Positions 1 to 28,800 of a DNA stretch of 64,000 nt are shown here, in pieces. The position numbers and the translations under genes are program-made. Position 1 is the first letter of the stretch. Each line of letters starts with the position of its first letter. Origin of the DNA: a virus (Duplodnaviria; Caudoviricetes); IMG/VR virus record IMGVR_UViG_3300033069_000690, positions 26,493 to 90,492 of that record, one strand, 5' to 3'. Below the pieces are notes generated by a model that was given only the letters and a program-made list of their open reading frames with translations, was not told the DNA's origin and searched no databases.

Positions 1-723
1 ACTAAAAATCCTGTTAATGTGGTAGTTACAGGAGCAAATAAAAAAGATCAGAGAAATATTGTAGGGTTACCTGTCCTAGATGACAAAGGTAATGTTAAGA
101 TTTTCTGTAAAAGATCTCCTTTACTAGGACTTAGTAAGAACGGTAAGAAAAGTAAAGATAACAAGCCAAAATGGTATATCTTTTCTTATGAAGATCTTTT
201 AATTAATGATTTAGACAACTTATCTAAATCTAGAGTAACAGAAAGTTCATCTGTTAAGCTCATTAATAGTTCTTCTAATTGCTTTAACTTAGAATTCAAA
301 GTGAACTCCTTGAAAGATGAGCAAACAAATGAGGTTCTAACAGGCATTAAAGCTAAGATATTAGAAGAAAAATCTATTTGCAAATTAAAAGGCATCCTTG
401 TTCAAAGAAACGAAAAAGAAGGACGGACACTATTCTTAACTGAGTATGCTGGTCTTCCTATAAGTTTCCTATCGACCAATTGTGAGCTGTTTAAACCTTC
501 TTTAAAAGGCTTTAATATTCCTAAAAACAGGAATAAAGTTGAGGGTATAACCTGTAAAATTGTTCGTAATAAACAGACCATATTCAATATGGATGAGAGG
601 GTTAAAATCCTCAAGTTTGAGAAAAACTCAAAAACACCACAAAGACACTATTTCACTGTACAATCACTAGAAACTCCTAGCAAAATCAGTACAGTTTACT
701 CGCATAACTTAAAAGTAATCTAA
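1..723 (+). CDS. Hypothetical protein, probably 5'-truncated by the window edge
   Basis: Frame is open from base 1 (ACT AAA AAT CCT GTT AAT GTG...). Its stop overlaps the next ATG (TAATG at 721-725). No recognisable motif. Confidence 0.6.
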   Translation, partial: TKNPVNVVVTGANKKDQRNIVGLPVLDDKGNVKIFCKRSPLLGLSKNGKKSKDNKPKWYIFSYEDLLINDLDNLSKSRVTESSSVKLINSSSNCFNLEFKVNSLKDEQTNEVLTGIKAKILEEKSICKLKGILVQRNEKEGRTLFLTEYAGLPISFLSTNCELFKPSLKGFNIPKNRNKVEGITCKIVRNKQTIFNMDERVKILKFEKNSKTPQRHYFTVQSLETPSKISTVYSHNLKVI

Positions 724-1670
724 TGACAAAGGTAATTACTCGTCGAATCAAACCAGTAGCTAAAGAAGTTGCACCAGTAGTAGCTAAAAAGGAAGCTGCT
801 AAAGCACCAGTTGCTGCTAAGCCCAATTTTCCCACTTCAACTAGTGGTAAAAATTATACTCAATTTCGTCCGCAAATTCGTAGTAGACATCCCAGCCATA
901 GCTGTTTGCGTAATGCTTTACCTCGCCTTCCTTTCCCTTCAGTTATTCGCTTTGGTTCTACTACCGTTCTCCCGGATGTGGTATCTAAAGGAGGTCGTCG
1001 TGTTGAAGTTAATACTGTGGAAGCTGTTACTAAGTCGGCCAATAAGTTATTAATGAAACAAGCATTTGCTGAGAATGATGTAAAAACAGCAATTTGGACT
1101 CGTACAGCTAATGCTGAAGAGCTTCGTCGTTTCTTTAACGAACATGGTCAAATCGTGGCTAAATCCTTCTTTGGAAGTCGTGGTGAGGGTAATACCTTTA
1201 TTAGCTCAATGGATGCGTTAAATCGCTTTATTTTAGCTAATACGATCAATAATTTCGTGTTTGAGAAGTACTACAACTACGTACGTGAATACCGCTTACA
1301 CGTAACAGCTGAAGGCGTGTTCTATACATGTCGTAAGATGTTAAAGCGTGACACTCCTGAAGCAGAACGTTGGTATCGTAATGATAGCAATTGTGTGTGG
1401 ATCTTAGAAGAGAACCCAGACTTCGATCGTCCTCTATGTTGGGATGCTATTGTAGAGCAATCTGTAGCAGCTCTTAATGCAGTAGGATTAGATATTGGTG
1501 CTGTGGACGTAAAAGTACAATCTAATACTAAGGGCGGAAACCGCCGTCAAACCGTAGATTTCATCATTCTTGAAATCAATTCTGCTCCAGCGTTTGGAGA
1601 ACTTACCGAAACTCTTTATAAAGAAGAGTTGATGAAAGTTTTAAAGGCAAAACATAATGCAAATCAATAA
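723..1670 (+). CDS. ATP-grasp (RimK/YheCD-like) peptide ligase
   Basis: IVAKSFFGSRGEG, EKY...EYRLHV, GLDIGAVDV and ILEINSAP ATP-grasp motifs. Ala/Lys/Pro-rich N-terminal tail. Confidence 0.85.
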   Translation: MTKVITRRIKPVAKEVAPVVAKKEAAKAPVAAKPNFPTSTSGKNYTQFRPQIRSRHPSHSCLRNALPRLPFPSVIRFGSTTVLPDVVSKGGRRVEVNTVEAVTKSANKLLMKQAFAENDVKTAIWTRTANAEELRRFFNEHGQIVAKSFFGSRGEGNTFISSMDALNRFILANTINNFVFEKYYNYVREYRLHVTAEGVFYTCRKMLKRDTPEAERWYRNDSNCVWILEENPDFDRPLCWDAIVEQSVAALNAVGLDIGAVDVKVQSNTKGGNRRQTVDFIILEINSAPAFGELTETLYKEELMKVLKAKHNANQ

Positions 1671-2505
1671 TTTATTAATTGGATCTGATCCAGAGGCGAT
1701 GATTATTCATCAAGAATCTGGTAAGATGATCAGTGCTGTAGGATTAATTCCGGGAACTAAAGAAGAACCAGTAAGTATTGGTAATGGATGTTATATCCAA
1801 GCTGATAATGTTAATGTAGAATGGTGTTTACCACCAAGCAACGATCCTGTTGATTTTACTAAAAATCTTAAGTATTGTGTTGACTACACTAACAAAATAT
1901 TACCTCAAGGACATAGAGTGTTGTTAAAGAGTAGTCACATCTTTGATGGTGACCAGCTATTAACACCAGAAGCCCTTGAATTTGGTTGTGATCAAGATTA
2001 TTGTATCTATAATGTAGATACTGGTAGTCCTAATCCTAAACCTGCTGCTGCCAATCCTAATTTAAGAAGCTGTGGAGGTCATATCCACTTTGGTTCTATC
2101 AACTTGATTAATCAACAAGATGCAATCTACTTCTTAAAGACGCATGTAGAGCCTATCTTAGGAATCGCTCTAGTTGCTTTAGATCCAGATCAACGTCGTA
2201 AGGAATTATATGGTAAAGCAGGAGCTTTCCGTTATAAGCCTTATGGTATTGAGTATCGTACACCATCAAATTTCTGGTTAACTACTCCTGAACTAATCCA
2301 CTTTGTATTTGAGCTAATCTATACAAGAATGGTTGGTGTTAGACCTGAGGACTTACCATATCGTGTCCTATTCAAAGACATGGGACCAGAATTTGCAGCA
2401 CCTGCTTTCATTCAATCAGTCATTAATGAAAATAAGGTAGAACAAGCAACGAAAATCATGTCTGTTCTAGACATCAAATTACCAGTATTAACAACAAATA
2501 ATTAA
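1657..2505 (+). CDS. phiEco32-like COOH-NH2 ligase type 2 (glutamine synthetase/GCS fold)
   Basis: IGSDPE, QADNVNVEW, EFGCDQDY, GGHIHFG, RRKELYGKAGAFRYKPYGIEYRTPSNFW. Confidence 0.85.
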   Translation: MQINNLLIGSDPEAMIIHQESGKMISAVGLIPGTKEEPVSIGNGCYIQADNVNVEWCLPPSNDPVDFTKNLKYCVDYTNKILPQGHRVLLKSSHIFDGDQLLTPEALEFGCDQDYCIYNVDTGSPNPKPAAANPNLRSCGGHIHFGSINLINQQDAIYFLKTHVEPILGIALVALDPDQRRKELYGKAGAFRYKPYGIEYRTPSNFWLTTPELIHFVFELIYTRMVGVRPEDLPYRVLFKDMGPEFAAPAFIQSVINENKVEQATKIMSVLDIKLPVLTTNN

Positions 2506-2509
2506 AACT

Positions 2510-4027
2510 ATGTGTGGAATAGTAGGATTTGTAGGCACTAATAATGCTCAATTTGATCTTAACACAATTAAGATATTAATGTATGTAAACTCTAAACAAA
2601 GAGGTACAGACGCATGTGGGGTATTTACTCCAGAATTGGGTATATTAAAGTCTACAGGGGAAGCATATGATTTCCTCTATAAAAACGAGGATAAAATTGT
2701 TCCTTCTAGTATTTTCATAGGTCATGTTAGAGCTAAGACTAAGGGTGTTAACTCTGATGAAAATGCTCACCCATTTCAATATGAAAACATTGTAGGAGTT
2801 CATAATGGGACTCTAACAAACAATGATGACCTTATAAAACAAGTTGGTGGAAATCCACTTGATTTTAAAGTTGATAGTCAGGCTATCTTCTACCGTTTAG
2901 GTAAAGATAAGAAAGCCACAGTATTATCAGATTTAAAAGGCCCAGCAGCAGTTCTATTCCAAGATACAACTGATCCTGATGTCTTATATGCTTTCAGAAA
3001 TGATGAAAGACCATTGGTATTTGGTAAGCGTCCAGAAGGTCTTTATATTTCTTCTATTGCAGATCCTTTGGAATGGGTTAATTGTACAGAAATTGAACAT
3101 GCTCTTCCTGGTTACATTTACCGAATTCGTGATGGTAAATTAGAGAAGAAATGGAGAATTCGCTATCATAAGGCTACTGAGAACATCTTGGATGTAAAGT
3201 ATATTGCTAATGTTCCCTCTGCATGTTTGGCTGGGCTTATCTTATATGTGAATGGTGGAAATGCTATTCCCTATTCTAGCTTTCAGAACATAAAGCCTGG
3301 TTATTATCGTATTAAACACACAACAGTTGAAGACCAACTTCAACTTTATAGTGTTGAAAACTTTAATGATAAAATATATGAACAGACAAGTAAGACTAAC
3401 GTCAACTTAGCTTCTGTAAAATCTTTGTTCATTAAAGGTAGCTTCGTAGTAGCTAACTACAACCTTACAGCTGGTAGCAAGAAGAAACAAAAGCGTACAG
3501 TAGCTTCTAAGGGAGATCTATTGAAGATAGAAGGACCTATGAAAACCTTTGCGCAAGAAACAATTAAGGTTAGACACTTAAAAAGTGGTAGAACTGAAAC
3601 TGTTCAAGTTTCTGATGTATTACCATTGTTTGAGACTCATGAAGTCTTAAGAATTGCTCGTGAGCAAGGTATTAAGCTACAACACAACGAATTACCAGTT
3701 AGTACCTTTACTAAGGATCAATTGATTCAACGAGTAAAGAACTTGACAAATAAATTTATCTCTGGTACACCACTTGATAATTTTACAAACCTGGATATTG
3801 ATCCATCAGAAAGACCTATAGATATGGCATTTGAAATTGAAAGTCAACCAGCAAAAATTCACAGTTTAATCGTTAAAGCACAATCTGTCTTTACTAAGAT
3901 AGCTATAAAGTTTCCAGAAGAAACAGAATTAGTTGCTGAGATTAATGAATTTAATAAAGAAGCAGAAGAGTGTAAAAACATTCTTATTGCTATGGAAGAC
4001 GATATCACCGAATCAGAAACCGTTTAA
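2510..4027 (+). CDS. Class II (Ntn) glutamine amidotransferase with uncharacterised C-terminal extension
   Basis: N-terminal MCGIVG (catalytic Cys2), RGTDACG, GHVRAKT, NAHPF, HNGTL, DSQ, RPL. About 290 extra C-terminal residues. Confidence 0.88.
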   Translation: MCGIVGFVGTNNAQFDLNTIKILMYVNSKQRGTDACGVFTPELGILKSTGEAYDFLYKNEDKIVPSSIFIGHVRAKTKGVNSDENAHPFQYENIVGVHNGTLTNNDDLIKQVGGNPLDFKVDSQAIFYRLGKDKKATVLSDLKGPAAVLFQDTTDPDVLYAFRNDERPLVFGKRPEGLYISSIADPLEWVNCTEIEHALPGYIYRIRDGKLEKKWRIRYHKATENILDVKYIANVPSACLAGLILYVNGGNAIPYSSFQNIKPGYYRIKHTTVEDQLQLYSVENFNDKIYEQTSKTNVNLASVKSLFIKGSFVVANYNLTAGSKKKQKRTVASKGDLLKIEGPMKTFAQETIKVRHLKSGRTETVQVSDVLPLFETHEVLRIAREQGIKLQHNELPVSTFTKDQLIQRVKNLTNKFISGTPLDNFTNLDIDPSERPIDMAFEIESQPAKIHSLIVKAQSVFTKIAIKFPEETELVAEINEFNKEAEECKNILIAMEDDITESETV

Positions 4028-4036
4028 ATTTAGTAA

Positions 4037-5605
4037 ATGGCAACTCAAAGAAGAAGACCTGGATTAGAGGAAGCGAAAAACGTTAAGCCTCAAAGAAAGA
4101 CAGTTTTAAATTCTGTTATAAAATTCAGTAAAACTGAAAGTGAGCCTCTTGAAATTGTAGAGAACTTAATAAAACTAGAACTAGTTAAAATAGCAGAACT
4201 TGATGCTACTCCTAATCCTGGATTGAGTGAAAAGAAAATAAAGGATTTAAAGGAAGAGGGCTACGAGTTTGTATATGGTGGATGGGCTAAAGGAAAAGAC
4301 TTGATTAAGTGTGCTATTACTGGTACACGATTCAAGAATGGTGGACAGGTAGGAAATGTAGTTACTAAAATAACTCATTTGAAAGGAAGTAATAACTTAT
4401 CTTTTCAGCAAACTGTTGAAGTTCACCCATTGATCTATCCATTATTACCTATCATGTTTTATAAAGGATCTAGCTATAAAGTAAGTTTAGATGCTTTATT
4501 AAGCGTAGCAGATCTAGTAGTAGAAGTACCTCTAAGAGGTATTTATGCAATGGAAGAAGATGCTGCAAATTATGAATACCAAGATTATTATAAGTTTAAT
4601 AATTGTAAATTTGAAAGCACAGGTGACTTATCCTTAGATTTCTTCTATGGGTTAAATTCACCAACATTCTCCACTACCCACCAGATGAGATACTCTTTTG
4701 GTGTAGAAATTGAATGTGTAACAAGCTACTTAGCTCCTAATATTACAAAAGCATTTAATGCTGCGTGTGTAAGAGATGGTAGTATTGGAGGAAGTCGTAC
4801 ACAGGGTGGTCCTGAGTATGTTACTGGTATCCTAAAGGGTGATGCGGGTATGCTACAGCTTCAAAAGCTAGTAAATTTCCTATCCCCTCGATCTTCCATT
4901 GACCGTACTTGTGGTATTCACGTACATATTGGCGGTTTTAAAGTAAATAAACAATTTGCATTAGCAATCCATAAGTTAGGATTATTAGTACAAACTGACT
5001 TACTTAAAATGTTACCAGTTTCTAGACGCTCTAATGAGTACTGTCGTCCTATGAAAGATATTGGTATTCAGTTACCAGATCTAACTAAATTAGGAAGTAA
5101 CGTATTATTAGACAAAGAATTTGATAAGCTTGTAAATTACATTGGTTGTGTGGATGCCGCACGTCCAGTTAAAACAGGTTCATTAAATAAGCGTACTCAA
5201 CACCCTATGGGTAAGAAGTGTGGTTATAACCATTCCACACCTCGTTATGAGTGGATTAACTTTGTACCATTGTTATTCGATGATAAGGGTATTCAGAGTT
5301 ATACCATAGAATTCCGCCCTCATAGTGCTAGTTTGAACTATGAGAAGATTAAGAACTGGGTACTGATTTGTATGGCTCTAGTCAAATTTGCTGAAGAGAA
5401 CTACGATTTAATTCGTGTTAGTAAATCTTTAACAATTGAGGAGATAATCAATTTAGTAACCAACAACAAAGCTTCTAGTTTAATTAATTACATTAATAAC
5501 AGAAAAGCTTTATTCACAAGTAATTCAGCGGAAGGAGAAGAGTATTCGAAAGACTCCTTCAATGAAAATATATCACAATTATCTTTAAAAGAACTATGTG
5601 CATAG
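4037..5605 (+). CDS. Amidoligase (COOH-NH2 ligase, Amidoligase_2-like) with N-terminal extension
   Basis: FGVEIEC, DGSI, PEYVT, TCGIHVHIG, RY..IN, TIEFRPHSASL. Confidence 0.85.
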   Translation: MATQRRRPGLEEAKNVKPQRKTVLNSVIKFSKTESEPLEIVENLIKLELVKIAELDATPNPGLSEKKIKDLKEEGYEFVYGGWAKGKDLIKCAITGTRFKNGGQVGNVVTKITHLKGSNNLSFQQTVEVHPLIYPLLPIMFYKGSSYKVSLDALLSVADLVVEVPLRGIYAMEEDAANYEYQDYYKFNNCKFESTGDLSLDFFYGLNSPTFSTTHQMRYSFGVEIECVTSYLAPNITKAFNAACVRDGSIGGSRTQGGPEYVTGILKGDAGMLQLQKLVNFLSPRSSIDRTCGIHVHIGGFKVNKQFALAIHKLGLLVQTDLLKMLPVSRRSNEYCRPMKDIGIQLPDLTKLGSNVLLDKEFDKLVNYIGCVDAARPVKTGSLNKRTQHPMGKKCGYNHSTPRYEWINFVPLLFDDKGIQSYTIEFRPHSASLNYEKIKNWVLICMALVKFAEENYDLIRVSKSLTIEEIINLVTNNKASSLINYINNRKALFTSNSAEGEEYSKDSFNENISQLSLKELCA

Positions 5606-7101
5606 TTGAATATTTCCCACCTGGTGTTGATAAGGACACAGAATTTGTAAAGGAAAGTATCAGACAAGGAGCAGCATCTAATAGTATGGGTCTAGGATTT
5701 GCTTTTAAGAAGAAGGGTAAGCTTTACTTACATAAAGGATTCGAATCAAATCGGGTGAATGACCTTATAAAAGAGATCGAATCTCATGCGTTAACGAAAG
5801 ATGACGAATTAGTATTTCACGCTCGTATCGCCACATCAGGAGGAACTCGTCCAGAAATGACTCATCCATTTGTATGTAGTAACGACATTGAAGAAGTAGG
5901 TATCTTAAAAGGATATGTAGAAAAGCCAGTATTAGCTCATAATGGAGTGTTTCCTAAATTAGGAAATACTAAATACAGCGATACTTTCGAATTTGCACAT
6001 CAAATTTTAGGAGATTCTGCTGCATTAGCTCTATTAAAGTTAGACCAAGAAGCTTTCTCTGAGAGCGTTAAGGATATCTGGGGCTGGAGTAAAGTAGTAG
6101 TTATGTTTCCCGGGGATGAGAAAACCAAAGTATTAGGTGAATTCATTACTGATAAAGACTGTAAGTTTTCCAACAATGGCTACAAAACTTATGTAAGGAA
6201 CGTAGGAGGCGTTGAAAGACGAGACAACTTTCAAGGGCGTGCTTATGCTTACGGAGGGAGACAAGGGAGAATCGACGACGTTGACTCCAGAGACGGATTT
6301 GAAGACGAATACGACCACAGTTGTGGGGCAGGCTGTTTCCCCTCTCAGGGAGCGCGAATTGGCCAGTCGCGTTCGAGTATCCAGAGGGGGATCCACCCTT
6401 TTAAACTTGATGAGAGCTTTGTTCATAGTGGGATGTTCCATTCTTGGCCTGTTATTTATAGCAACACTGCTCTTGTCCCTAATATTTTTAATTATGACAT
6501 GTTGGTAGGAACATGTAATAATGACATTGCTAACTTCAGAAAAGGAGAAAAAATCTTCCTAAACTCTTATGACCCATTTGCTGGCGCAGCTATTTGCAAT
6601 AGCGTAGAAGACACTAGTAACATACTATCATGTTTTGAGGAAATAAAAGATTTAGTAAAGAATTGTACATTCGTCCCTAAAGCAGTAGATGGTCCTTTCC
6701 TAAAGGAATACTCAAAAATTAACGAGATACTCTGGAATATAAGAGTAGATAACGACAGACCTTTATATGATACAGATACGGACTTACCGATATCTAAAGG
6801 CAAAATGAAGGACATCTTCAAATTCGTTATGGATGAGGCTACAGAAACTGTTGGAGGTAGACTATACTTAAAGGCTAATAAAAGCAAATACAGTCTAGTA
6901 GACTCTCCTCGAAAAGGCAGCATAGCATTAGCTTCTATTGTTAGTACAGCAGCGTTAGTGCTTTGGTATGCAGAAAGACAACATCTCTTCCCTAAAACCT
7001 ATCAATTCTCTCACACAACAGTGGGTTACTTGATTGGTAAGAAGAACAGTTTCTTCTCTGAATTCGGAGCAGGATTTACAACAACAGGCGGAGTCCTATA
7101 A
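5596..7101 (+). CDS. Second class II glutamine amidotransferase (YafJ/GATase_4-like) with long C-terminal extension
   Basis: MC start (Cys2), GLGFA, FHARIATSG, THPF, AHNGV, SDT, and FSN at the end of the domain. Confidence 0.82.
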   Translation: MCIVEYFPPGVDKDTEFVKESIRQGAASNSMGLGFAFKKKGKLYLHKGFESNRVNDLIKEIESHALTKDDELVFHARIATSGGTRPEMTHPFVCSNDIEEVGILKGYVEKPVLAHNGVFPKLGNTKYSDTFEFAHQILGDSAALALLKLDQEAFSESVKDIWGWSKVVVMFPGDEKTKVLGEFITDKDCKFSNNGYKTYVRNVGGVERRDNFQGRAYAYGGRQGRIDDVDSRDGFEDEYDHSCGAGCFPSQGARIGQSRSSIQRGIHPFKLDESFVHSGMFHSWPVIYSNTALVPNIFNYDMLVGTCNNDIANFRKGEKIFLNSYDPFAGAAICNSVEDTSNILSCFEEIKDLVKNCTFVPKAVDGPFLKEYSKINEILWNIRVDNDRPLYDTDTDLPISKGKMKDIFKFVMDEATETVGGRLYLKANKSKYSLVDSPRKGSIALASIVSTAALVLWYAERQHLFPKTYQFSHTTVGYLIGKKNSFFSEFGAGFTTTGGVL

Positions 7102-7111
7102 AAATTAATAC

Positions 7112-7134
7112 GGGGGTAGCAATACCCCCTTTTT
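7112..7134 (+). terminator. Rho-independent terminator closing the ligase operon
   Basis: GGGGGTA-GCAA-TACCCCC followed by TTTTT, 11 nt after the stop at 7101. Confidence 0.85.
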
Positions 7135-7346: not shown

Positions 7347-7646
7347 ATGATTTATTTAAAAATATTTTTGTTAGTTTTTTTACAAAACGCTAGCTTTACT
7401 TTAGTTAGTAGAGCACGAACAGGTAACAATATGTGGTATCACATGTGCGCATCTGTTCTATCTAATGGTATATGGTTACTTGTTATCCGTCAAGTAGTCT
7501 TAAACCTAGAAAGTCCTGGCTTTCAACTATCCTATTTAATAGGAGCAGTTACAGGCTCAGTACTAATGCACTACATTGCATTACATCATATTGAGGAGAA
7601 AGAGATATGGAAGAGGCTAAAAGCGAAGTTACTACAAGGGAGATAA
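7347..7646 (+). CDS. Small membrane protein (DUF5698/DUF2179-like)
   Basis: Three hydrophobic helices and the segment FLQNASFTLVSRAR. Confidence 0.6.
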   Translation: MIYLKIFLLVFLQNASFTLVSRARTGNNMWYHMCASVLSNGIWLLVIRQVVLNLESPGFQLSYLIGAVTGSVLMHYIALHHIEEKEIWKRLKAKLLQGR

Positions 7647-8311
7647 AAGTAGGAGATATTTATTTGGTAGGAACCAATAGATATGCTTTACCAAATAAAT
7701 ACATTGTTAAGGAGATTCTCCCAAACAATAGAGTTATAGGAACACCTACTAAATCACATTTCGGAGGTCTTACAGAACTTATACATTCGTATTCTGAAAT
7801 TATTTTAGATAAGGAAGTAGAAGGATTTGGTAAGGAATATCCTAAATATCTTAGAATTGATGATACTCTATATTGGTTTACAGAAATTTTTCCTGTAACT
7901 AACTTTGAAGGAGATCGTTTATTAGGAATGTACTATAGAGCAACGTACAGATGTAAAGAAGATGGTTATAAGAGCTTCAAGAGCATAAACTATAATGATC
8001 CTATCTTAATAATTAATTCAATTGAGGAGTCTGAAGTAGATACTAAACAACATAATTATCAAGACTTAATAGATGAACATGAAGAATTATTAGGGCAAAA
8101 AGTAGTTATTTCTAATAGAATCAGAGATATCAAAGAAGAACTACTTGAAACCCAACGTAACTGTAAACATCAGTATAGTGGAGAAACCTTTGAATTATCA
8201 GATAATTACAATGGTAGTTACGATTTTGCAGAAATAATTTATACTAAAACATGTATTAAATGTTTACACGAATCCCAAGAAGTAATTAGTATAAGTTCTG
8301 ACGATGACTAG
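7607..8311 (+). CDS. Hypothetical protein with C-terminal CxH...CxxC possible Zn site
   Basis: 234-aa ORF with a coiled coil followed by NCKH...TCIKC. Confidence 0.6.
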   Translation: MEEAKSEVTTREIKVGDIYLVGTNRYALPNKYIVKEILPNNRVIGTPTKSHFGGLTELIHSYSEIILDKEVEGFGKEYPKYLRIDDTLYWFTEIFPVTNFEGDRLLGMYYRATYRCKEDGYKSFKSINYNDPILIINSIEESEVDTKQHNYQDLIDEHEELLGQKVVISNRIRDIKEELLETQRNCKHQYSGETFELSDNYNGSYDFAEIIYTKTCIKCLHESQEVISISSDDD

Positions 8312-8786
8312 ACCACTGAGACGGAAACCAAAGATTAGAGATGACACCAAAAAGAATAGAAGAGTGGCCTTAAAAATTAGAAAAAAGAAAGGAGCTAATA
8401 AGAAGATAAAGAATGCTGTTTCACTAGAAGTGGATGGTATTAAATTTCGTTCTAAACTCGAAGTATATGCTTACAGAGCATTACGAGAAGCTAATATTCC
8501 TTTCGAGTACGAAAAGCATAAGTTTGACCTATTACCATCATTCGTCTACAAAGATGAAAAAATTCGGGGAGCCTCCTATAAGCCCGATTTTGTAGGTGAC
8601 GGATGGATCATAGAAACCAAAGGTTATGCTACTGACGTTTTCAATTTACGTTGGAAACTTTTCAAGTTCAAGCTCTTTAGTGAGGGGAAAGACATTGATT
8701 TGTACCTCCCAAAAACTCATGAGCAAGTTAACAATGCTATTGCAAAAATAATGGAAAAGAATGCTGCAAGACCCAACGATTCGTAA
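8304..8786 (+). CDS. PD-(D/E)xK endonuclease, T7 endonuclease I/DUF1064-like (possible Holliday-junction resolvase)
   Basis: FRSKLE, FEYE, YKPDF, IIETKG. Basic N-terminal tail. Confidence 0.82.
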   Translation: MTRPLRRKPKIRDDTKKNRRVALKIRKKKGANKKIKNAVSLEVDGIKFRSKLEVYAYRALREANIPFEYEKHKFDLLPSFVYKDEKIRGASYKPDFVGDGWIIETKGYATDVFNLRWKLFKFKLFSEGKDIDLYLPKTHEQVNNAIAKIMEKNAARPNDS

Positions 8787-19700: not shown

Positions 19701-19888
19701 GAAGAATTATCCCACTCGCCGAACCAAGCTTTAAAGTTATCTGTGTAAACTCTAGCCCAAGCTTTAAGAGCATCATTACTATTACCTAATGTGTTCTTTA
19801 AAGTTTGATAGAGTATAGACTCATTTCCATTAGGAGCATTTACCCTATTAACGTTACCGTGCTTATCGTATTTAATTTGACAACTCAT
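13796..19888 (-). CDS. Large polyvalent virion/ejection protein (GNAT-like, ART-like, zincin, PD-(D/E)xK nuclease)
   Basis: FKAWFGEW; NKGYGKDLY...SAKKMW (GNAT); LDENGEPRIFWH...GKGNYF...EVVVYDPNQVKS (ART-PolyVal-like); VHEFAH; TIDLL...IYDFKTG; hydrophobic helix near the C-terminus. Confidence 0.75.
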   Translation of the reverse strand: MSCQIKYDKHGNVNRVNAPNGNESILYQTLKNTLGNSNDALKAWARVYTDNFKAWFGEWDNSSYIKEGVKELFDSNPELANAVYEALGFKNKLKTTLGKELEYKDPYVPQSRLKSFKQYEVLNESGDNIGTVVVEYRGNETVILHPKLNVTNKGYGKDLYKLISSKFNVEVQEWNEGAIANSDSAKKMWDSLEKEGSVKRIIDTEQGDNFRVLNYSNQLTPQQKQQAQELYSQYLDSIGVTNIAYHHSEEDISEFTSSSERYFQKELKKKNRYIPKLDDIVFLVKKPLTEEFMSKRKFIGSWGLKTPKTLQFSAGEKIGEGVHPGIDEGIFAGIEGNYDAIDFGRIRDNKTWSEVIAITNPKNAIKLGSKQDIEGFKAFKKSNEASEFNSLQKEYSNIIIDQVWKRLANEGIANTDSLIGTRETINNKDFNKFWSVVKDVDIQNVINFFKSEKQKALDSYSKYKGEFDPTTGTFTSNDTSFFDKKIKDLNTLLQQKQQEVSPEALDENGEPRIFWHKGDVVGEFNAELSSPTNTYGKGNYFAYTTDVANMEGKPGTPSAEGYFLRIQKPLVVEKTNNPDKAHENWKDIMRKVYKRTANSFDAIVDRNREVVVYDPNQVKSISNNGNFSTTNNNTKELRSTQNKRIGRVLVDHILHALAKAIKLDYEVVDFNEDPRTSQYRNNAGLYLNGKVLINKNRLSAEAPVHEFAHAFLKVIEQKNKVLYNNLVEQIKTSDVLTEVKALYPDLSEKDVLDEAIVTAIGRYGAGLVSSLPTMLVKAIKRFFVSLGKLVGIDTSVEVDGLSPTTTMFELASMMFNGRQLFDLDSDLTGSHELRFWNNGVDVTQEAAIATDDETYQMRSPSGAMNLLKRVTPLIDKIFNPYKSDGYEAYLAKREFKVQHQNVNGGKISLNNTMMDFDQAKEYFKSTSEQNRIKGKVIHKIFEKYFTDPSNPKYAQLDGELAALKAEYNQYDDSPFTFQWLNSKKLEEIRDYLGINSTDTVYTEFTVLDPETGLGGTIDLLIKHKDGSYSIYDFKTGSLKENEQAAYMKFGERFGIHWSLADRHKLQQTFYALMLKNKYPNIRFRDIGIIKPSQYDIEILRVDRDRFLGTLQEYFRENNPALLEKKPYLFNHKEYVALSRSLSADLDEVMKEGGVKNVFQARDILLLRLKKALEKLRKSGIDGKRPLTDEYVQNNMRVRDTEESLILKIAQLEGNEFGDYLSGMGTDMGFMERLTSVGYNVKNPLLKMFNKMYEEAKNLMTKERHDLYKKSDELVNKLLKAYYGNNQGKMLLDKLTRGALNLIDYEEVFRFMWEGDNVSGRKILTEYDKRFKELSPDEREYNIFYRDGIRDTMFAALSTKRGIEYYKQKLDNLSKDELLKYYSKDELRAKYEERIAYFKGLPEVEKWVDELGKGREYQEDMTPYIPKLPAELKGFREKTGQIKDWFWSNLTYTDFKAKNKDLFGLKPVGVPVKYLVSPFSYGAKGHSLHAEATFKMFVQNMKAKQHYDDIAVYGQALHDVLAYGTSNSGTEENSAVWVKNFVNNNIAEIYNDHRFGMGTEIKVGNKKVQLGKLTYAAMGVVTAAKLSWSTLGAASNAVLNYLYVTKEAVKGSIAKDLVGLDPSDIDWTVSDLVKAHGIYFQHLYNKNVLGKKDKWEEINQIYDFTQRQFNYNKSKENLAVASNRALDVKWAYLTYGIGDDVGYSITTIATLMRKKNIKTGLSIWDSYSFENGELKWNGGTRGRTENGDVIEGLSAQEIFSIKKANSRIMGEYDKSRKREMEGNALLSIFLQFHKYLPNVMERGWQGWKGDFENASLGKLVEVLDNETGKTVLDEDGNPLLRWESRLDKGSMLLASKVIGDAPGIRHMKLMVRALYAGEAIKLDSMNGGKEWKKLSPEQKQNVISLLLSWALWVGITGAMIAVYGDDDDDPRDPLKRRIANIKNDLTAEGNALELLRFLNKPTVLLPSLLEIVEGTNDVVFKGIINGERMRNGDMPGTKNLIKNIPFAGNSYMQNIQDPWWDKSSANAGRAR

Positions 19889-22800
19889 TAACAGCCTGTA
19901 TTATTTTTAATTATATCTTGTATTTGTGCATTCTCTTCATCAGAGAAATTTACTTTACTCTTTTCTTGTTTCTTCAAAGTATAAGTTACATCTTTTAAGT
20001 TAGTATATGTTTCACCGTATCTAGTTATCTCTTCCTTACCTCCTTGCTTAACCTCAGTAACTTCATAGTACTCTAAGTTATTATTGTAGAAGTCAGTGTA
20101 ATCGTGTACAAATACTGTGTCACCTACCTTAAGTAATTGATGTGGACTTACCTTATCAAGTTTATACGTTAGTTCAGGATTACCCGCTTCAGTTGGGGGT
20201 ACTCCTAAAATCTCATGTGGTAAATTGAAGTGATCATTAATATAGTAACCTGTAGTTAGATAAGATAAGTTAGCATCATAACCTCTACTTTTTTTATTAA
20301 CTCTAGTTATTGTTCTATAATAAGCTACTTTACCCTCATCTTTGATTTTTACGGCTAAAGATTCTTTACCATTTACTTTATTAGTAGTACGTAAGAACAC
20401 AGGAGGTTTAGCATACTTAATAGTTTTCTCTTCTTTAGATTTTTTATCCTCATACTTAACATCATTATAATCTAAAATGAAATCAGCTTCATGTGGATTA
20501 GTAATACCATACGTCGTCATATTCTTTACAGATAACCATTTAATTGCTGGTAAGTATCTTTCTTGTTGTCCTTGATGTTTAGCAATTTGAGAAGGGTTAT
20601 TTAAAGCAAATGAGATAGCAAAGTGATCTTTTATTTTATCAAACAAGGGACCATCTTTAATGAACGATTTCAATAAAGCATTATAAGTCTTAGCTTGTTC
20701 GGCTATATCTAAAGGATCTAGTAATTGTGAGAAGCTCTTAAGACCATACTCATGACCATTTTCTAATGCGGAATACTTTACCAGTTGTTCAATAAAGAAA
20801 GGAGGTAATAAGCTTAGATCATGTTTTAATTGAGCAGATACTGTACTATCATTTAGATTTGTACCAGCATTCCACTTAATTCTATATAGGCCTTTAGACT
20901 TAACAGCTGTTAACTTCTCTAAGAAAGCATTATGAGCATATTCACTATTAGAAGCTAAATCATTGATTACCTTTCCAAAGTGTTGAATCCAAGCATCCGC
21001 ACCAGTCACATAGAAACTCTTATCACCATTCTTTATTTCTAAAGGCTGCTTCCATATTGCATCAATCTCACTAGAATTAGATGCACTTGTAATAAGATAA
21101 CGAGTGAACTCTCTTCTTATTGTACTATCTATATTTTCTGTCTCGATACCATCTTCTGTATAAGCAGTTTTCTTCATATAAGACGTAATAAGATTTGCTA
21201 GTTTAGAGATCAATTTAGGATTATAAATATCCACAGCATTATTAACCAAATCAAATGAGGTAATAAAAGCATCCTCAGCACTTGAGAATTGAGGCAATGA
21301 CATGAAGCTACCATTAGCAAATCCAGTGTACTCTTTAGATTTATTAATCTTATCAATCATCTGTTGACCCTCTTCAAAAGTAACTTCAAAATCCTTAGTT
21401 AAATTAGCTACACTAGCTGCATTGCTCATAGCATCTACAACTGGTTGTAACTTATTGAACTCTCTAAATACCTTAACCTGAGTTAGCTTAGCTTTATGTG
21501 ATAGCTTAGAATACTCATTACCTACCTTAGTAGATTCTTCTAAAGCTAAGATTAGATCTTCAGTAGTTAAAGGAGATCTCAATTCCTTTTTAGTAAACTT
21601 TTTAGCTTCTTCAGTAACCCATTTAGTTCTTTGCTTTCCTCTTAAGGACACTAAGTCACGTACAAGTACTGGTTGTCTCATGAACAATGTGATGTCATTT
21701 AAAGGAACTCCTAATCCAACCATCAAAGCAATAGTAGGTCCTGTCTGGTTAGTAGCATTAATAATCTCTAATGCTTGTTCTTTCACGTTATCAATCGCAC
21801 CATTGATGAGAGTATCTAATACTTCCCATACCTTTCTACCAGTAAAGCCTTTACTCTTCTCAGTCTTAGAGATAGAGTTGTAACCTTCATTTAGCTTAAG
21901 AGTAACTGCTTTACCTTCCTTATCAACCATGTGAGATCCTTGACTAACATAGTTAACATAAGCTAAAGCCTTAACGAAGTTAGCAAATGCTCCTGTTAAT
22001 GCTACCCCAGCAAAGTTATCATTGTAAGTCTTTAACTGATCTAATAGATTGTTAGGATTACGTGTCTCATTCATATCAGCTCTTCCGTAGATAAGCTTCA
22101 ACTTAGTAATAACACCAATTGAGTTATCCTTGAAGATATTATTTTTTATTTCCTTATTAGTAATCTTGAATGTATTAGCTTCAGGATCAATAGCAATTAC
22201 CTTACTGATGTTCTCAGCAGTAATTCCCCACTCCTTAAACTTCTGTACAATCTCTATATCAGGACTATCTTGCTTCATTAAGTCTATAAACTCTGGAGTA
22301 ACTGAACCATCTTTACCATACACTTTAATAGATTTAGACGGATGATATAGTTCTAGATCTAAATCAAAGAAATCTTTCTTGATAGGGTCGAAAGAGATAG
22401 GTTGTCCCATATCCTTTTCATTTCTATCATGCAATAACATATAAATCATTGCATAAGCTTTCTTATTCTTTAGTGTACCCTCATAAGCTTCATAAGCTAA
22501 TTTATAATTAGCTGTATATTCTTTTTTAATATCACGATCTATATCTTTACTATTCATAAGATCTTCATATTTTTTCATGAGTTCTTTATAAGTAGTTAGT
22601 TGCTTATCAAACTCATTAAACTTTAATTCAGTATCAGTACTACCCTGAATCATATTCATTTGTTCAAAATTATCAATTTCAAATCCATGGGGCCATCCTA
22701 ATCTTTGTCCAGGCTCAACTACAATAGTACCATCAGGATTCTTTAAAGTTAATAATCTTTTAATACCACCTTCTTTCTTAAATAAAATCTCTGTACGTAC

Positions 22801-25800
22801 AGCAAACAAACTATCCACGTCAAAGTCAGATCCATGCAAAGCTACAAGCTCTTCAGGAGCAATAATGATGTTACTACTAGAATTAGTAGACGCTACCACT
22901 TTAAAAGGAATAGCAGAGTGAATACCCGTTGTAGGGATACGCACTGCATATTGTAGTTTAGTTAGGAAGTCAGGATATACTATTTCACCATCCTTATAAC
23001 CTTTCATATTTAACCACCAAGCAGGAGCAATAACCTCAGCTACCCTTCCTGTGTAAGAGTTTACATCTGATTTCATTAGAAGCTTAGTAGGAACCATGTA
23101 AACAGATTCATCATTGATATCGTCTACCATTTCCTTCTCAGCATCAGTTAACTGTGAGTAATCTCTAATGAACTTTTTGTTCTCTTCCCATGTAGTAAAG
23201 TTATTGTTCAAAGCATATGCACCAAACTTAGCACGTAAGCCACGTTGAACAGAATGAGGTAATGTGTAGAACTTATCTACCATCTTCTTCTGTGCTTCAG
23301 AGAGTTGTTTATAAGTAAGGACTTGTCCACCTACTCTATGTACACCTACACCCTTAGGTGTCTGTAGTACAAGCTTACTACCTCTACCATGTACAGCTTT
23401 AATGCTTTTCTTAGAAGCAGATGACATAAAGCTAATATGAACCTTACCTACTAATGCGGGGAAGTTCAAAGGAACTACATACTCATTATTTTCTTTAGCC
23501 CCAAGTAATTCAGCAAATCTTTCACTACCAGGTACATCACTAATAGATTCAATAATAAGTCTTCTAACTTCTTTCTCATTATAAGTAAATGTACCATCAG
23601 GATTCTTAACATAATTTAAACGCTTTTTAAACTTATCAAATGATAGATTTGTAAGTAAACCATCTATCTCATAGATAGCTTTAGCTACATCAGCATTCTG
23701 ACCATTCACATTAATAAAGTAAGTCAACTGACTAAAGTTAGTAATCTCCCCCTCAGTAGAACGTGGATTAGATTGGATTGAATAATGTTTAGTAGGTACT
23801 ATTACAACACCATTATGATCTTTATTAGATTCTAAGTGCTGGGAAATAGTCTCACCATTCTTTAATGTTCTTGCAGGTCTTCCTACCTTAAATGCAGAAG
23901 CCATATGCAATTCCATAATATTATTCTTTTCCATTTCTTGAGCTAACTCCTTAAGCTCAGGGAACATTTCCTGTAGAGCTGGTGTTAATTCAATACCCGC
24001 ATTCTTAGAGAATCTAGAGATACCAAACTTATCAATGAAGTAGAGTACAGGCTTAATAACATCTCCTAACTGGTAGAAATGACTATAACCAGCCTCTAAG
24101 TGATTTCTCCATTTAGGAAGATAAAACATTTGAGCATCTGTTAATTTATAGTCAATTCCATATATACCTTCTAGACCTTTTGCAAAGTCATTCCATTTAT
24201 TAAAATAATGAGAATCATCATCTGCAACCATAATAGCAATCTCAGTAGGCATACCAATAACATCATTAGCCACTCCTAATTGTCCCGGAGATACAGGACC
24301 ACTAGCACGTTTAGTTAAGTCAGCATTATGTTTGTATTGTCCTATATCACCTGTGTAAAATTGGTTAATGAAATGACCATTCACATAGTTGAGTTTATAG
24401 AATTCTTGTACCGCTATATAAGTATGTAACATTTGATGATACTTATATTGAGGGTACTCTATATCACGTTTCTTTAACTGGGATTTAAATTGTTCTTCGT
24501 AGTTTTTATAAGCACCATCATTAATGAGCTCATAAGTTTCTAATTTTCTAATTAGAGCTGCCATTAATGTTGGTGAGTTATGTTCAATATCTTCACCATG
24601 TTCTCTTGTAGAGAAAGCTTTATTTGAGTCTAAGTAAAAGAAAGCTTCATTAGCATCATGATTAAATCGGTTCTTAACCATATTTAGCAACTGCTTACGA
24701 CCTTGATCTGTTTTTAACTTCTCAGCTATTTCTTTATCAGGTAACCCATCAAAGAATCTTAAAGTAGCTTGTTCCTTATCACCAGCTATCTTCATACCAT
24801 CAGCATACTTTCTCCCATTGGTTTCCACAGGATGACTAGCTAAGCTATCCATCCATTCTCTTCTCTCTATTTGTTGTGTTAGAGCTGCTATAATATGAGC
24901 ATCTGTAGCACTATGAGAACTAATAGGAATCTCATGTCCATAAATCTTAGGCTTATTAGAAAGAGTATAACAGAATTGAATATACTTACCCTCTTTTAAG
25001 TTTTTAGTATTTAACATAGCTTCAAAACCATAACTAAACATACGAGTAACCCACCCAATTGTTTGCTCGTTCTTATACTTAGTTGATATACTATCATCAC
25101 TATGTGTTACACCGTTAATTCTTAATTGGGTCTTATGAGAATCATGTTCTATTAATCTACCTAGACCTATTTTTAAGTAAGGATTATGCTTAAAGAATTT
25201 ATATCCTAAGTTTTCCTTACGTAAGAAATCAGGCATTTGGAAAGCACCACCACGAGATTCCCTTACCTTAGTTAAGTACTCATGAATACGTGTTAACCAA
25301 CTACCAGTTACAAACATATAATTACGTTGCTTATCTCCTGTAATATAACTAGTGTTACCTCCAAAGTTTCTAGTGGTAGCAATTATATCTACAATAGCTC
25401 CTACATAACCATTAATGTCATTTAATAGCTCATCTTTTTTTCCATTAGTTGATAAGTCGTTATTTTTCACCAATTGGAATATATTTTTTAAAGAAGCTAG
25501 TATAACCTCACCTTGGTTCTCAGTACCAAAGAATTGTGAGAAGTTCTTTACATCTAGTAACTTAAATATTGACTGTACCTTGTTAACAGATCTCATATCC
25601 TTATTACCTATAATAGAAAGTACAGCATCTGCTTTATCTTTTCTAGTTTCATAATTAGACTCAACTACTTTAATAACTGATTCTTTAATACGATCATCAA
25701 CAGATTCCTGAGCACCTATTGCACGATTCTTTATATACCTATGATACATCCTATATATAGGATTAGTATTCTCATCTGTTTCCCCATCCTCATTTTCTAA

Positions 25801-28800
25801 ACGGGTAATACCTACAAAAGGATCTCTAGTAATTAGGCTACCAATACCAGAACGTAATCCAGCAATGAAATCTGCTGCATGTCCTTTTCTATAAGTAACA
25901 AGTAATAAGTTATACAATTGCTCATTACTCATATCAGCTGTAGACTCTTTACCAATCATAACTGGATGAGCTTTGAGTTGTTTAGCTGCTTGATAAATAA
26001 ATTTACCTGTATCTTGCTTTCTACCATCGCGCATAGAAACTTTAGAGTATCTATGGATGATATCACCATTCTCATTAAAGATTAATAACTTATTGTTAGT
26101 CATCTTTATTAAAGGAGATATTCCTCTTATTTCCTTCTTTCCTTCCTTAGATATAAATTCGTACCTTCTTGAAGAAAAAGCTAAAGTATACATCTCCGAT
26201 AAGAAATTAAATACAGCTTGAGCTTGAATATTATTTTTACCACCAATCTGATCTGCATTATAAGCTAGTTGTTTTAAGAAATATTCTGATGAGAAATCTG
26301 TACCAACTAACATTTGTTTAGCTAACATGAATACTACTGATCGTGGTATATGATGTATTACCTCTGTTTTAGTAATAGGTAAACCAGATTTGCTAATCAT
26401 AGGTTCTCCCTTACTATTAAGTACAGGAACTTCTTTAGTTACAAACAATGTACTCAATAAGTTCTTTACATTTTCTAATAAGGAAGATGAAAAGTCAAGT
26501 TGATTAGTATCTAAGATCTCATCACGTAATGATGGGTCTTGTAACATCTCCTCCTCTTCCATGGTTAGTTTATTACCTGAAGAAATAACTAAACTACGAT
26601 AAACTTCCTTGAATACATCTAGCTTACCGTTATAAGTAAGCAACTTAGAAAGCCATGCAGGTACTTCTTTTCCTTCTCTAGTAAGTTGTAGCATCTGGTC
26701 TATGAAGTCTTGTCTAACAGCATCTTCAGCTTCTTCAATTGTTAAAGGTACATTGAATAAATCAGTAGTTGTTGCTTTAACTTCTTTACCATCTTTAGTA
26801 GCTTTTACTTCTCTTACTCTTACATCTACTCCTCTAAAGGAACCATCCTTATTTGTGATAGGAGGCCATATCTTAACTCTAATAGCTTTTAATATAGCTT
26901 CTGTAGCTTTATTAAAGTTATCAACATGATCACCATATTCTTGTCCTCTAGTACCAAACCACTCTTTAATTTGAACTAAGTCAGCAGCACCTTCACCATT
27001 TAATTGAGCATTCTTATCAAAGTTATATACACCCTCGTCAATAGCTTCAAATAATTCATTTAACTGTTTCATTTGCTTATATTTAAAGCTGATAATACTT
27101 CTTAAGTAAATAAAGAATTTATGCAATGCTTTAGCTACAAAATTCATATCTTGATTAAAAGCTTGATACTGTCTAGCTAACCATTCCTCTATTTCCCTAT
27201 CAGGGCTAAATTGGTCCCCCATAATATCTCTAGCTGTCTCCAACATACTAGAATACTCTTGGGCTGTTAAATAAGTTTTAGCTACTCTATGGAATGCCTC
27301 ATGTCGTAGGATACGTGAATAGATAGTACCATCATCATTCGTTTGTAAGTAGATTATACCTCTCTCATAACGTCCCCAACGTGATCCTCCAAAACGACGG
27401 ATCATATCTTCCCTAGTTAAGAATACAATGTTCTCTGGGTTAGAAGCAAACTTTTCACCAAATATCTTAGTAGCTGCTTTGATGATAGTATCTCTACTAA
27501 CAGCAGGACCTAAATCTTCCACACTTACAACTTCTTCTGCTAAATCATATCCATTAATATCTTCATCATCATCTGTATTAGAAGAGTTATTGTCAATATG
27601 TTCATCATCAATATTAATTACAGAATCATTTACAGTATCTTCAGAAGCCCTCTGAGCTGGTTCTTCTTCACTTGTATAACCTGGAACTTCTGATGGAGTA
27701 GCTTGGTCTAGTATAATCTCAGTAGGCTCAATAGATTCTAAATCAGTTTCAAATTCCTCTGCCATGGCTTCCCAGGTATTTCTACGTTCAGCATCATCTT
27801 TATTAGGCATACGGATCTCATCCATATTAGTTGGCATACGTAATCCAAATCCATCATTAACATTACTCTCTCCCTCAGATGTAAATGCTTGATCTCCAAT
27901 CATCATCTCTAAGGTTTCTGTTGTTAGCGGTAATGATGTATGGTGAGTTATATTACCTTTATTATCTTTATGAGCATAAGCTGGTAGTCTACCACGCTTA
28001 CCTGTATTAACCCAATCTTGAATGTCTTTAGCACCTAAAGCAGCTAATAAAGAAATACCAGTAAAGTACTCTCTACCTGAATCAGGTTTTCTTTTATTAA
28101 CACGAATGAACTGACGCTCTCCTGTCTTAGTATTAAAGAAAGAAGAGTTAGCTTGTGCTATCCTATTAAATGTTTTTTCAGCAGGACCGCTAGCTCTTGA
28201 GTTCAAGACCATGTTGTTACTAATGAAATCAATCATAAAATCAGTAGGATTAATATCAGCATTAGTTACTTGTCCTCTAGTTATTAAAGAACCGCTTTTC
28301 TTAAAGTTTTTATAAACACGTCCTTGATCATCCACAAGTTCTTTTACGTGAATGTCATAATTAGCTGGTCCACCTTCTTTAGGCATATCAATCTTGACAT
28401 GGAGATTATTATAATCAAATACCTTTCTCCATACTTGGCTTCCATCAGTTTTCTCTATTAAGAAGTACCCAGGATAATTTGGATGCTCTGTATACTTCTT
28501 ACCATCAATAGTTTTATTTCCTTCTACTACCTTACGGCTTCCTTTAGTTCCAGTAATTAAATACTTACTTAAGTAAGCACCATTACTCTCATCTACATTA
28601 ACAGGAGCTTTAGTTTCATCTAATCCAATCTCATTACCTGTAATAGATTCATATACAGCTTCTCTAATAGCTTTGATTAAGTCTAGTACTTTAGCCGTAT
28701 CTTCCTTAGCATCAGATAGCTTAGCCATGATATCATCATGAACTTTAGAACCCGTATTAAGGAAATGGGTAAACACCTCAGATTGCGTACGTTGGAATGT

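Follow-up and report, generated by a model that had tools for sequence, protein, structure and literature searches.

A run of five enzyme genes at positions 723-7101 on the plus strand of the DNA analysed here is almost certainly the crAss-like version of the amidoligase cassette of phiEco32/LUZ24-type phages. The analysed stretch, called the window below, is 64,000 nucleotides long and comprises bases 26493-90492 of the linear 90.5-kb IMG/VR virus record IMGVR_UViG_3300033069_000690. The cassette encodes three predicted ligases (an ATP-grasp enzyme, a COOH-NH2 ligase type 2 or lig2, and an Amidoligase_2) and two proteins with class II, N-terminal nucleophile (Ntn) glutamine amidotransferase (GATase) domains, GAT1 and GAT2. 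As a kind the cassette is not new; it is a lineage variant of a known system, found in hundreds of lytic phages and common in environmental crAss-like phages, with 157 relatives of the ATP-grasp protein in IMG/VR. Added here are the predicted seven-gene unit to which the five genes belong, the finding that GAT2 represents a large, hitherto unannotated family of the cassette, with no fewer than 1,245 clusters, and the Cellulophaga phage phi14:2 as a culturable model. We lean towards a cassette that builds, amidates and trims a glutamate or glutamine amide compound. The preliminary description of this DNA held that no product is established, and our literature search found no paper naming one, 17 years after the prediction; the present copy does not solve the question. 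The genes of the cassette, its closing terminator and the gene directly upstream are listed below.

1-723 (+): 3' part of gene X; the open reading frame (ORF) starts outside the window (L005:11882-13216) and has up to 444 aa

723-1670 (+): ATP-grasp carboxylate-amine ligase (P0004), 315 aa; phrog_2599, sub-threshold RimK, MptN and GshB matches

1657-2505 (+): lig2, COOH-NH2 ligase type 2 (P0005), 282 aa; PF14395

2510-4027 (+): GAT1, class II (Ntn) GATase (P0002), 505 aa; GATase_6

4037-5605 (+): Amidoligase_2 (P0003), 522 aa; PF12224

5596-7101 (+): GAT2, divergent class II (Ntn) GATase (P0001), 501 aa; motifs, profile-profile comparison and fold

7112-7134 (+): intrinsic terminator; 7-bp G+C-rich stem, GCAA loop, T5

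The five ORFs run head to tail: the first and the last pair overlap, by 14 nt and 10 nt respectively, and the two junctions in between are gaps of 4 nt and then 9 nt, the co-directional, overlapping or abutting arrangement that the preliminary description had reported. The strong terminator which it placed at 7112-7134 is also present (GGGGGTA-GCAA-TACCCCC followed by T5; -13.7 kcal/mol, z -2.9 against shuffles). This hairpin is base-for-base the same in the relative L010, whose cassette proteins are just 62-74% identical to those described here, and it therefore appears to be conserved as a structure-bearing element. A matching boundary at 723, implied when the block was called terminator-bounded, does not exist: the stop codon of gene X overlaps the ATP-grasp start (TAATG), and gene X in turn follows the primase gene. 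Going upstream, the first terminator-like hairpin (GGGGGC-TTCG-GCCCCC plus T5, L005:10782-10802) lies immediately before the primase ATG, outside the window, about 1.7 kb before its start and about 2.4 kb upstream of 723; L010 has a similar one in the same place. From terminator to terminator the predicted unit is thus not a five-enzyme operon; it holds seven co-directional genes, namely primase, X, ATP-grasp, lig2, GAT1, Amidoligase_2 and GAT2. At its annotated length the primase ORF would start within the upstream hairpin (L005:10780), and translation probably begins instead at the ATG at L005:10807.

All five enzyme assignments of the preliminary description, including the difficult fifth, were borne out by Pfam and PHROG matches, profile-profile comparison and fold. 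Its test of whether the catalytic residues align was also passed: all three ligases and both Ntn domains have full sets of catalytic or metal-binding residues that are invariant across distant homologues. The ATP-grasp protein matches phrog_2599 (9e-35), with all Pfam ATP-grasp models below threshold. Its NCBIfam matches to MptN (on top), RimK and GshB are far under the cut-offs, and the family profile aligns with the PurK, PurT and BacD structures over their ATP-binding half (E 4e-4). A RimK/GshB-like core spans about residues 48-311, with K147, E181, E189, R191, D262, E284 and N286 invariant, among them the Mg/ATP motif residues. Ahead of the core is a 45-residue Ala/Lys/Pro-rich N-terminal extension, encoded at 723-860 (+) and limited to the clade of this window, L010 and L012 (shorter); phi14:2 and the gut phage cr108_1 have none.

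The closest named family by sequence is RimK, which shares the ATP-grasp fold, and relatives' records use this name and also 'ribosomal protein S6 glutaminyl transferase'. The latter name is unwarranted: the protein scores 33.8 bits against the RimK model TIGR00768, where the cut-off is 143.4, and so is no RimK orthologue. It also differs in a shortened N-terminal domain and in having no S6-like substrate and no RimA/RimB partners. These comparisons bear on a tagging role, in which the ligases would extend a protein of the host or the phage with tails of glutamate or peptide, the way RimK modifies S6, and the Ntn enzymes would trim these tails. For systems of this sort Iyer and co-workers reportedly suggested that proteins receive peptide modifications. 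RimK-family alpha-L-glutamate ligases are the best relatives of the ATP-grasp protein that bear a name, and the PHROG name of its family refers to S6 modification. The low RimK score speaks against such tagging, MptN and GshB, which are small-molecule enzymes, score equally well, and the cassette has no conserved companion that could be the substrate protein. Gene X does not fill that place. It has only five homologues, all from close relatives, evolves fast (42% identity where ATP-grasp has 74%), and its C-terminus is not acidic. No family was found for it in Pfam, PHROGs or the ESM Atlas, and its real start is probably 36-59 codons further in than the ORF start. We regard protein tagging as quite unlikely.

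The two further ligases are recognised directly. The second enzyme, lig2, belongs to the GCS2/glutamine-synthetase-like superfamily, matches PF14395 (COOH-NH2_lig; 48.1 bits, cut-off 25) and phrog_3815 (2.8e-61), and shares 36-37% identity with its counterparts in phage 7-11 and the phiEco32-like phages. Residues E13, E55, H142, H144, E199 and R201 are invariant, and tblastn found the protein in 311 GenBank phage records with nearly all hosts Gram-negative. Amidoligase_2 matches PF12224 (49.9 bits, cut-off 22) and phrog_2443 (1.2e-22), and has a glutamine-synthetase-like ligase core at about residues 219-455 with E224, E226, D247, E260, H295, R403, E425 and R427 invariant; its N-terminal 218 residues matched no known family. 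Sequence searches of the PDB with either ligase gave nothing usable.

The class II GATase domain of GAT1 occupies residues 1-222 (GATase_6, 46.1 bits, cut-off 27) and has C2, R74, N99, G100 and D122 invariant. Its model superposes on the GlmS glutaminase domain with Z 27.0 (root-mean-square deviation (rmsd) 2.2, 210 residues aligned), and GlmS and PurF amidotransferases (Z 27.0 and 25.1) rank above EgtC (Z 23.1). Beyond residue 204 there is no invariant column. In a low-confidence model the C-terminal half contains a beta-rich region (244-373) and a helical hairpin (437-505). Model-based comparison detected no SIS, PRTase or AsnB-type synthase domain, and an ESM Atlas search with the C-terminus gave no usable match. 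Lacking both invariant residues and a synthase domain, this half looks like a scaffold or interaction region and not an acceptor-site enzyme domain. Relatives' records name the protein GlmS. We reject this name, as the match is confined to residues 1-185 and scores 68.7 bits where the cut-off is 381, and the two C-terminal SIS isomerase domains are not present, the beta-rich region and hairpin standing in their place.

GAT2 required more than family searches. No Pfam model scored above threshold (best GATase_4, 13.3 bits against 23), so its class II membership rests on motifs, profile-profile comparison and fold. The protein starts Met-Cys (MCIVEY...), C2 being shared by 90% or more of 24 family members, and R77, N116, G117 and D129 are invariant in 24 homologues. 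Matched by inspection, these residues follow the GlmS order of glutamine-binding Arg, oxyanion Asn-Gly and alpha-amino-binding Asp, as do those of GAT1. HHalign relates the N-domains of GAT2 and GAT1 (97%, E 1.2e-10). An AlphaFold model, in which residues 1-200 have pLDDT above 90, matches the GlmS glutaminase domain in Foldseek (E 2e-6, probability 1.00). It superposes on GlmS 1xff with Z 14.6 (rmsd 3.5 over 174 aligned residues), a score practically equalled by EgtC at Z 14.0. PDB sequence searches with GAT2 and with its family profile returned nothing usable. As modelled, GAT2 is a class II (Ntn) GATase-fold protein with the Ntn four-layer fold.

The Ntn domain of GAT2 (residues 1-205) is followed by predicted disorder (202-287), a barrel (291-363) and a helical region to about residue 480. 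The barrel is of SH3/Tudor/KOW-like type, with generic matches at Z 5-7. Neither GAT2 nor GAT1 contains a recognisable synthase domain. A derivation of the GAT2 C-terminal part from UDG was considered and dropped when profile-profile comparison proved negative; comparisons of the C-terminal parts of GAT2 and GAT1, the N-terminal part of Amidoligase_2 and gene X, together with UDG and GGACT, all gave probabilities of at most 0.1%.

The GAT2 barrel is one of the points cited here for a role in remodelling the peptidoglycan or the envelope. The ligases and amidotransferases would alter the stem peptide of murein precursors in the cytoplasm, for instance through additional or amidated D-Glu or mDAP linkages, and this would block superinfection or control lysis. 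Amidation of mDAP by class II amidotransferases of the AsnB/LtsA type is an established precedent. The named hosts of phages with the COOH-NH2 ligase are all Gram-negative or diderm (Pseudomonas 121, Escherichia 94, Vibrio 19, and others), and residues 291-363 of GAT2 weakly match the SH3b domain of a gamma-D-glutamyl-L-diamino-acid endopeptidase (Z 6.6). That match, however, is generic, one amid dozens of SH3, Tudor and KOW matches at Z 5-7. Pfam and PHROG searches found no Mur-ligase, transpeptidase or murein-binding family in the cassette, none of the five N-termini shows a signal peptide by inspection, and the genes lie among replication genes, not lysis genes. In the published form of this hypothesis the genes are called a 'peptidoglycan modification cassette' and are supposed to prevent superinfection, with reference to Iyer and Hardies (PMC5498523); the literature examined contains no experimental support for it. 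Envelope remodelling seems to us unlikely.

GAT2 itself belongs to a large family. A word-index search found only eight homologues, which made it look rare, an impression overturned by a full hidden Markov model (HMM) search. Among 50%-identity cluster representatives this search found 1,245 proteins at E <= 1e-30 and 10,928 at E <= 1e-3, the weaker matches possibly including ordinary class II GATases. Nearly all of the best 150 matches span both domains, and family members measure either about 220-240 aa, the length of the N-domain alone, or 415-580 aa. The GAT2 start lies within the Amidoligase_2 end both here and in distant relatives. Two distant members (L096 and L097) directly follow Amidoligase_2, and a third, P0100, comes from a 3.1-kb contig where no upstream cassette gene was called. 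By gene position in the distant members sampled, where GAT2 follows Amidoligase_2, this large and previously unannotated family appears to belong to the cassette.

The link to the phiEco32-type cluster made in the preliminary description stands. The phiEco32-like phages, Salmonella phage 7-11, the LUZ24-PaP3 group and RIO-1, all lytic short-tailed phages, carry the same four enzyme families in an early or replication region. In phiEco32-like phages and 7-11 the gene order differs, the phiEco32-type ATP-grasp is 24-27% identical and about 100 aa longer than here, and the cassette has two further genes of unknown function. Its small second amidotransferase-type gene, unlike GAT2, is unrelated to class II enzymes (profile probability 0.1-0.2%). 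The phiEco32/LUZ24-type cassette was reportedly described from genome analysis by Iyer et al. in 2009 (Mol Biosyst) and by Hardies et al. in 2013. The targets suggested in the preliminary description, that is proteins, peptidoglycan or a small peptide, repeat published hypotheses.

Nor is the cassette new among crAss-like phages, since it is already annotated at the same locus in two of them; the literature search found no paper joining 'crAss-like' and 'amidoligase'. Phage phi14:2 (Crassvirales, Steigviridae; NC_021806) has it at g037-g041, right after the primase as here, in the order primase, gamma-glutamyl cyclotransferase (g037; GGACT), ATP-grasp (g038), COOH.NH2 ligase (g039), GATase (g040), amidoligase (g041) and UDG, and its genes already bear these enzyme names. 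Identities to the present proteins are 49% for ATP-grasp, 29% for the ligase, 30% for the GATase N-domain and 29% for the amidoligase core. The phi14:2 GATase has 638 aa against 505 aa here, and the GGACT before ATP-grasp and the UDG after amidoligase are both absent from this genome, which instead has gene X upstream and GAT2 downstream. The gut crAss-like phage cr108_1 (Pipoluvirus rarus, NC_055878) likewise carries ATP-grasp (45% identical), COOH-NH2 ligase, a large class II GATase and amidoligase after its primase, annotated as such. It differs in having a Peptidase_C26 (47.4 bits) and two unknown genes of 300-330 aa between ATP-grasp and ligase, a UDG downstream and no GAT2. As phi14:2 is cultured on Cellulophaga baltica and has an orthologous core, the system is open to genetics.

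To survey the cassette, the best 80 of the 157 ATP-grasp relatives in IMG/VR were fetched and their ORFs scanned with HMMs from seed cassettes; 56 loci had at least 3 kb upstream and at least 7 kb downstream of ATP-grasp. GAT1 and Amidoligase_2 are present in all 56, Amidoligase_2 each time just after GAT1, and lig2 in 50. The complete core of ATP-grasp, lig2, GAT1 and Amidoligase_2 occurs in 50 of the 56 loci, so that the cassette passes the test of co-conservation named in the preliminary description, and this core is co-inherited across environmental crAss-like phages. The other genes are more scattered: GGACT in 34 of 56 loci, UDG in 33, a small C26-type GATase in 19 and GAT2 in 19.

Two architectures predominate. 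The phi14:2 type runs primase, GGACT, ATP-grasp, an optional small GATase, lig2, a GAT1 of 600-720 aa, amidoligase and UDG. The type found in this window has an optional X, then ATP-grasp, lig2, a GAT1 of 505-590 aa, amidoligase and GAT2. The small GATase of the former is a Peptidase_C26 of class I fold (the cr108_1 protein mentioned above is one) and unrelated to GAT2; Pfam confirmed the C26 and GGACT identities. GAT2 and UDG were never found together (0/58 loci). The 90.5-kb record has no match to PF06094 (GGACT), PF07722 (C26) or UDG, and GAT2 is the sole extra amide-cleaving-type enzyme in this genome. Across these loci the accessory slot is occupied by GGACT, C26 or Ntn proteins, three unrelated folds. 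Characterised members of all three cleave gamma-glutamyl or glutamine amide bonds. Three unrelated gamma-glutamyl-cleaving folds in one slot support gamma-glutamyl amide chemistry as the common thread, and we consider gamma-glutamyl/carboxamide chemistry likely for the cassette.

The reading we favour is a cytoplasmic, replication-phase pathway that would build, amidate and trim a short glutamate- or glutamine-containing amide compound on a non-protein acceptor. By family chemistry, each ligase would use ATP to turn a carboxyl group into an acyl-phosphate and then join it to an amine. The conserved Arg and Asp of the Ntn domains would bind glutamine or a gamma-glutamyl group with free alpha-amino and alpha-carboxylate, and Cys1 would either release ammonia for a ligase or cleave a gamma-glutamyl amide. 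GAT1, Amidoligase_2 and GAT2 would act as a unit, and GAT2 would take the gamma-glutamyl-cleaving accessory slot that GGACT and/or Peptidase_C26 hold in phi14:2-type cassettes. Taken as a whole this seems to us somewhat better than an even proposition. As to the acceptor, a small molecule is possible though on balance doubtful, a peptidoglycan precursor rather unlikely, a protein unlikely or quite unlikely, and a nucleotide, cofactor or DNA very unlikely.

A working analogy, with no membership implied, is ergothioneine biosynthesis, in which the GCS2-type ligase EgtA attaches a glutamate that the Cys1 Ntn enzyme EgtC later removes. EgtC superposes on the GAT1 and GAT2 models at the Z scores of 23.1 and 14.0 given above, with 15-16% sequence identity; EgtB and EgtD have no equivalents here. 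Class II glutaminase domains are normally fused to a synthase, and stand-alone ones such as EgtC are gamma-glutamyl amidohydrolases, which favours a trimming role for at least GAT2. The preliminary description had counted two ammonia donors. The two GATase domains are confirmed; the donor role is one of two readings, as neither protein has a synthase domain and the accessory slot is elsewhere held by GGACT or C26.

That GAT1, Amidoligase_2 and GAT2 are invariably adjacent, with starts and stops overlapping, makes an ammonia-channelling complex possible. In one form of this idea the three proteins would be a split amidotransferase of a new kind, with a class II glutaminase acting in trans with the glutamine-synthetase-like ligase, that makes an amidated or gamma-glutamylated compound of nucleotide or cofactor type for replication or anti-defence; GAT2, with its SH3-like module, would be a lineage-specific specificity or recycling subunit. 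We hold this specific version to be highly improbable.

Several observations weigh against the build-amidate-trim pathway. GlmS, PurF and EgtC all superpose on the models, so that both Ntn domains may be either ammonia donors or hydrolases. The C-terminus of GAT1, the N-terminus of Amidoligase_2, the C-terminus of GAT2 and gene X match no family, include no acceptor-indicating domain and do not match one another. GAT2 occurs together with GGACT or C26, if only in three surveyed loci (L075, L076 and L085), and L097 carries GAT2, C26 and GGACT together, so that GAT2 is no strict substitute for them. The ATP-grasp tree is poorly resolved, with two supported independent pairs, and the complementarity of the accessory genes is accordingly without statistical support. 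Finally, co-transcription of the seven-gene unit is inferred from its terminator-like hairpins only.

Gene neighbourhood gives some room to another possibility. Upstream of the cassette are the PolA, DnaB, Sak4 and primase genes and downstream are resolvase-like, exonuclease and ribonucleotide reductase (RNR) genes, which places it in the replication module of a lytic phage genome. The cassette might then make an amide-linked compound of nucleotide type (a DNA base, an NAD-related compound or a folate-type polyglutamate) for replication or counter-defence. It always lies between primase and the resolvase, exonuclease and RNR genes, the terminator-bounded unit is shared with the primase, and the top NCBIfam match of the ATP-grasp protein, MptN, is a cofactor glutamate ligase. 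In the unrelated carriers phage 7-11, Lbo-JY46 and L097 there are also NAD-salvage genes near the cassette, although such nearness is raw co-occurrence in a few carriers. These are Nampt/PncB-like plus Prs-like genes of NARP1 type within a few kb (1-1556 of L002, which is 7-11; 1246-5455 of L095, which is Lbo-JY46; and 13470-16744 of L097). Yet none of the cassette proteins showed a domain that binds nucleic acids or nucleotides, and the neighbourhood may merely reflect expression timing; we give nucleotide, cofactor or DNA modification very little credence.

The phage itself is a divergent crAss-like phage, the identity proposed in the preliminary description. Its major capsid protein gene at 61243-62688 (-) matches phrog_11589 (6e-87), and tblastn with the capsid protein matched solely Crassvirales-type records, at 30-31% identity over 98% of its length. 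The record carries genes for a family A DNA polymerase (PolA), DnaB, Sak4, primase and RNR, and the window includes minus-strand ORFs of 2030 aa and 4868 aa. The CheckV completeness estimate is 59%; one relative, whose gene order is the same, is represented by a circular 95.1-kb contig, so the record is probably nearly complete despite that estimate. A megablast of the cassette region against GenBank phages gave zero matches. The 4868-aa ORF at 19888-34494 (-), beside the 2030-aa ORF, is presumably the crAss-like phages' giant cargo protein of virion RNA polymerase type. A product of 6220 residues, with weak AAA_30 and viral helicase matches, is called in the same place in the relative L012.

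Just past the terminator, 7347-7646 (+) encodes a 99-aa hydrophobic protein (P0016; phrog_33664, 2.6e-7) that looks like a small membrane protein and keeps its position in L010. The next ORF, P0017 (7607-8311 (+), 234 aa), has an acidic ...SSDDD tail and no Pfam or PHROG match. It is missing at this position in the close relative L010, where a 96-aa gene is directly followed by the DUF1064 gene, and looks like a lineage-specific insertion. A DUF1064 or phage endonuclease I-like protein of Holliday-junction resolvase type is encoded at 8304-8786 (+), a slot held by RusA in phi14:2 and by an endonuclease in cr108_1.

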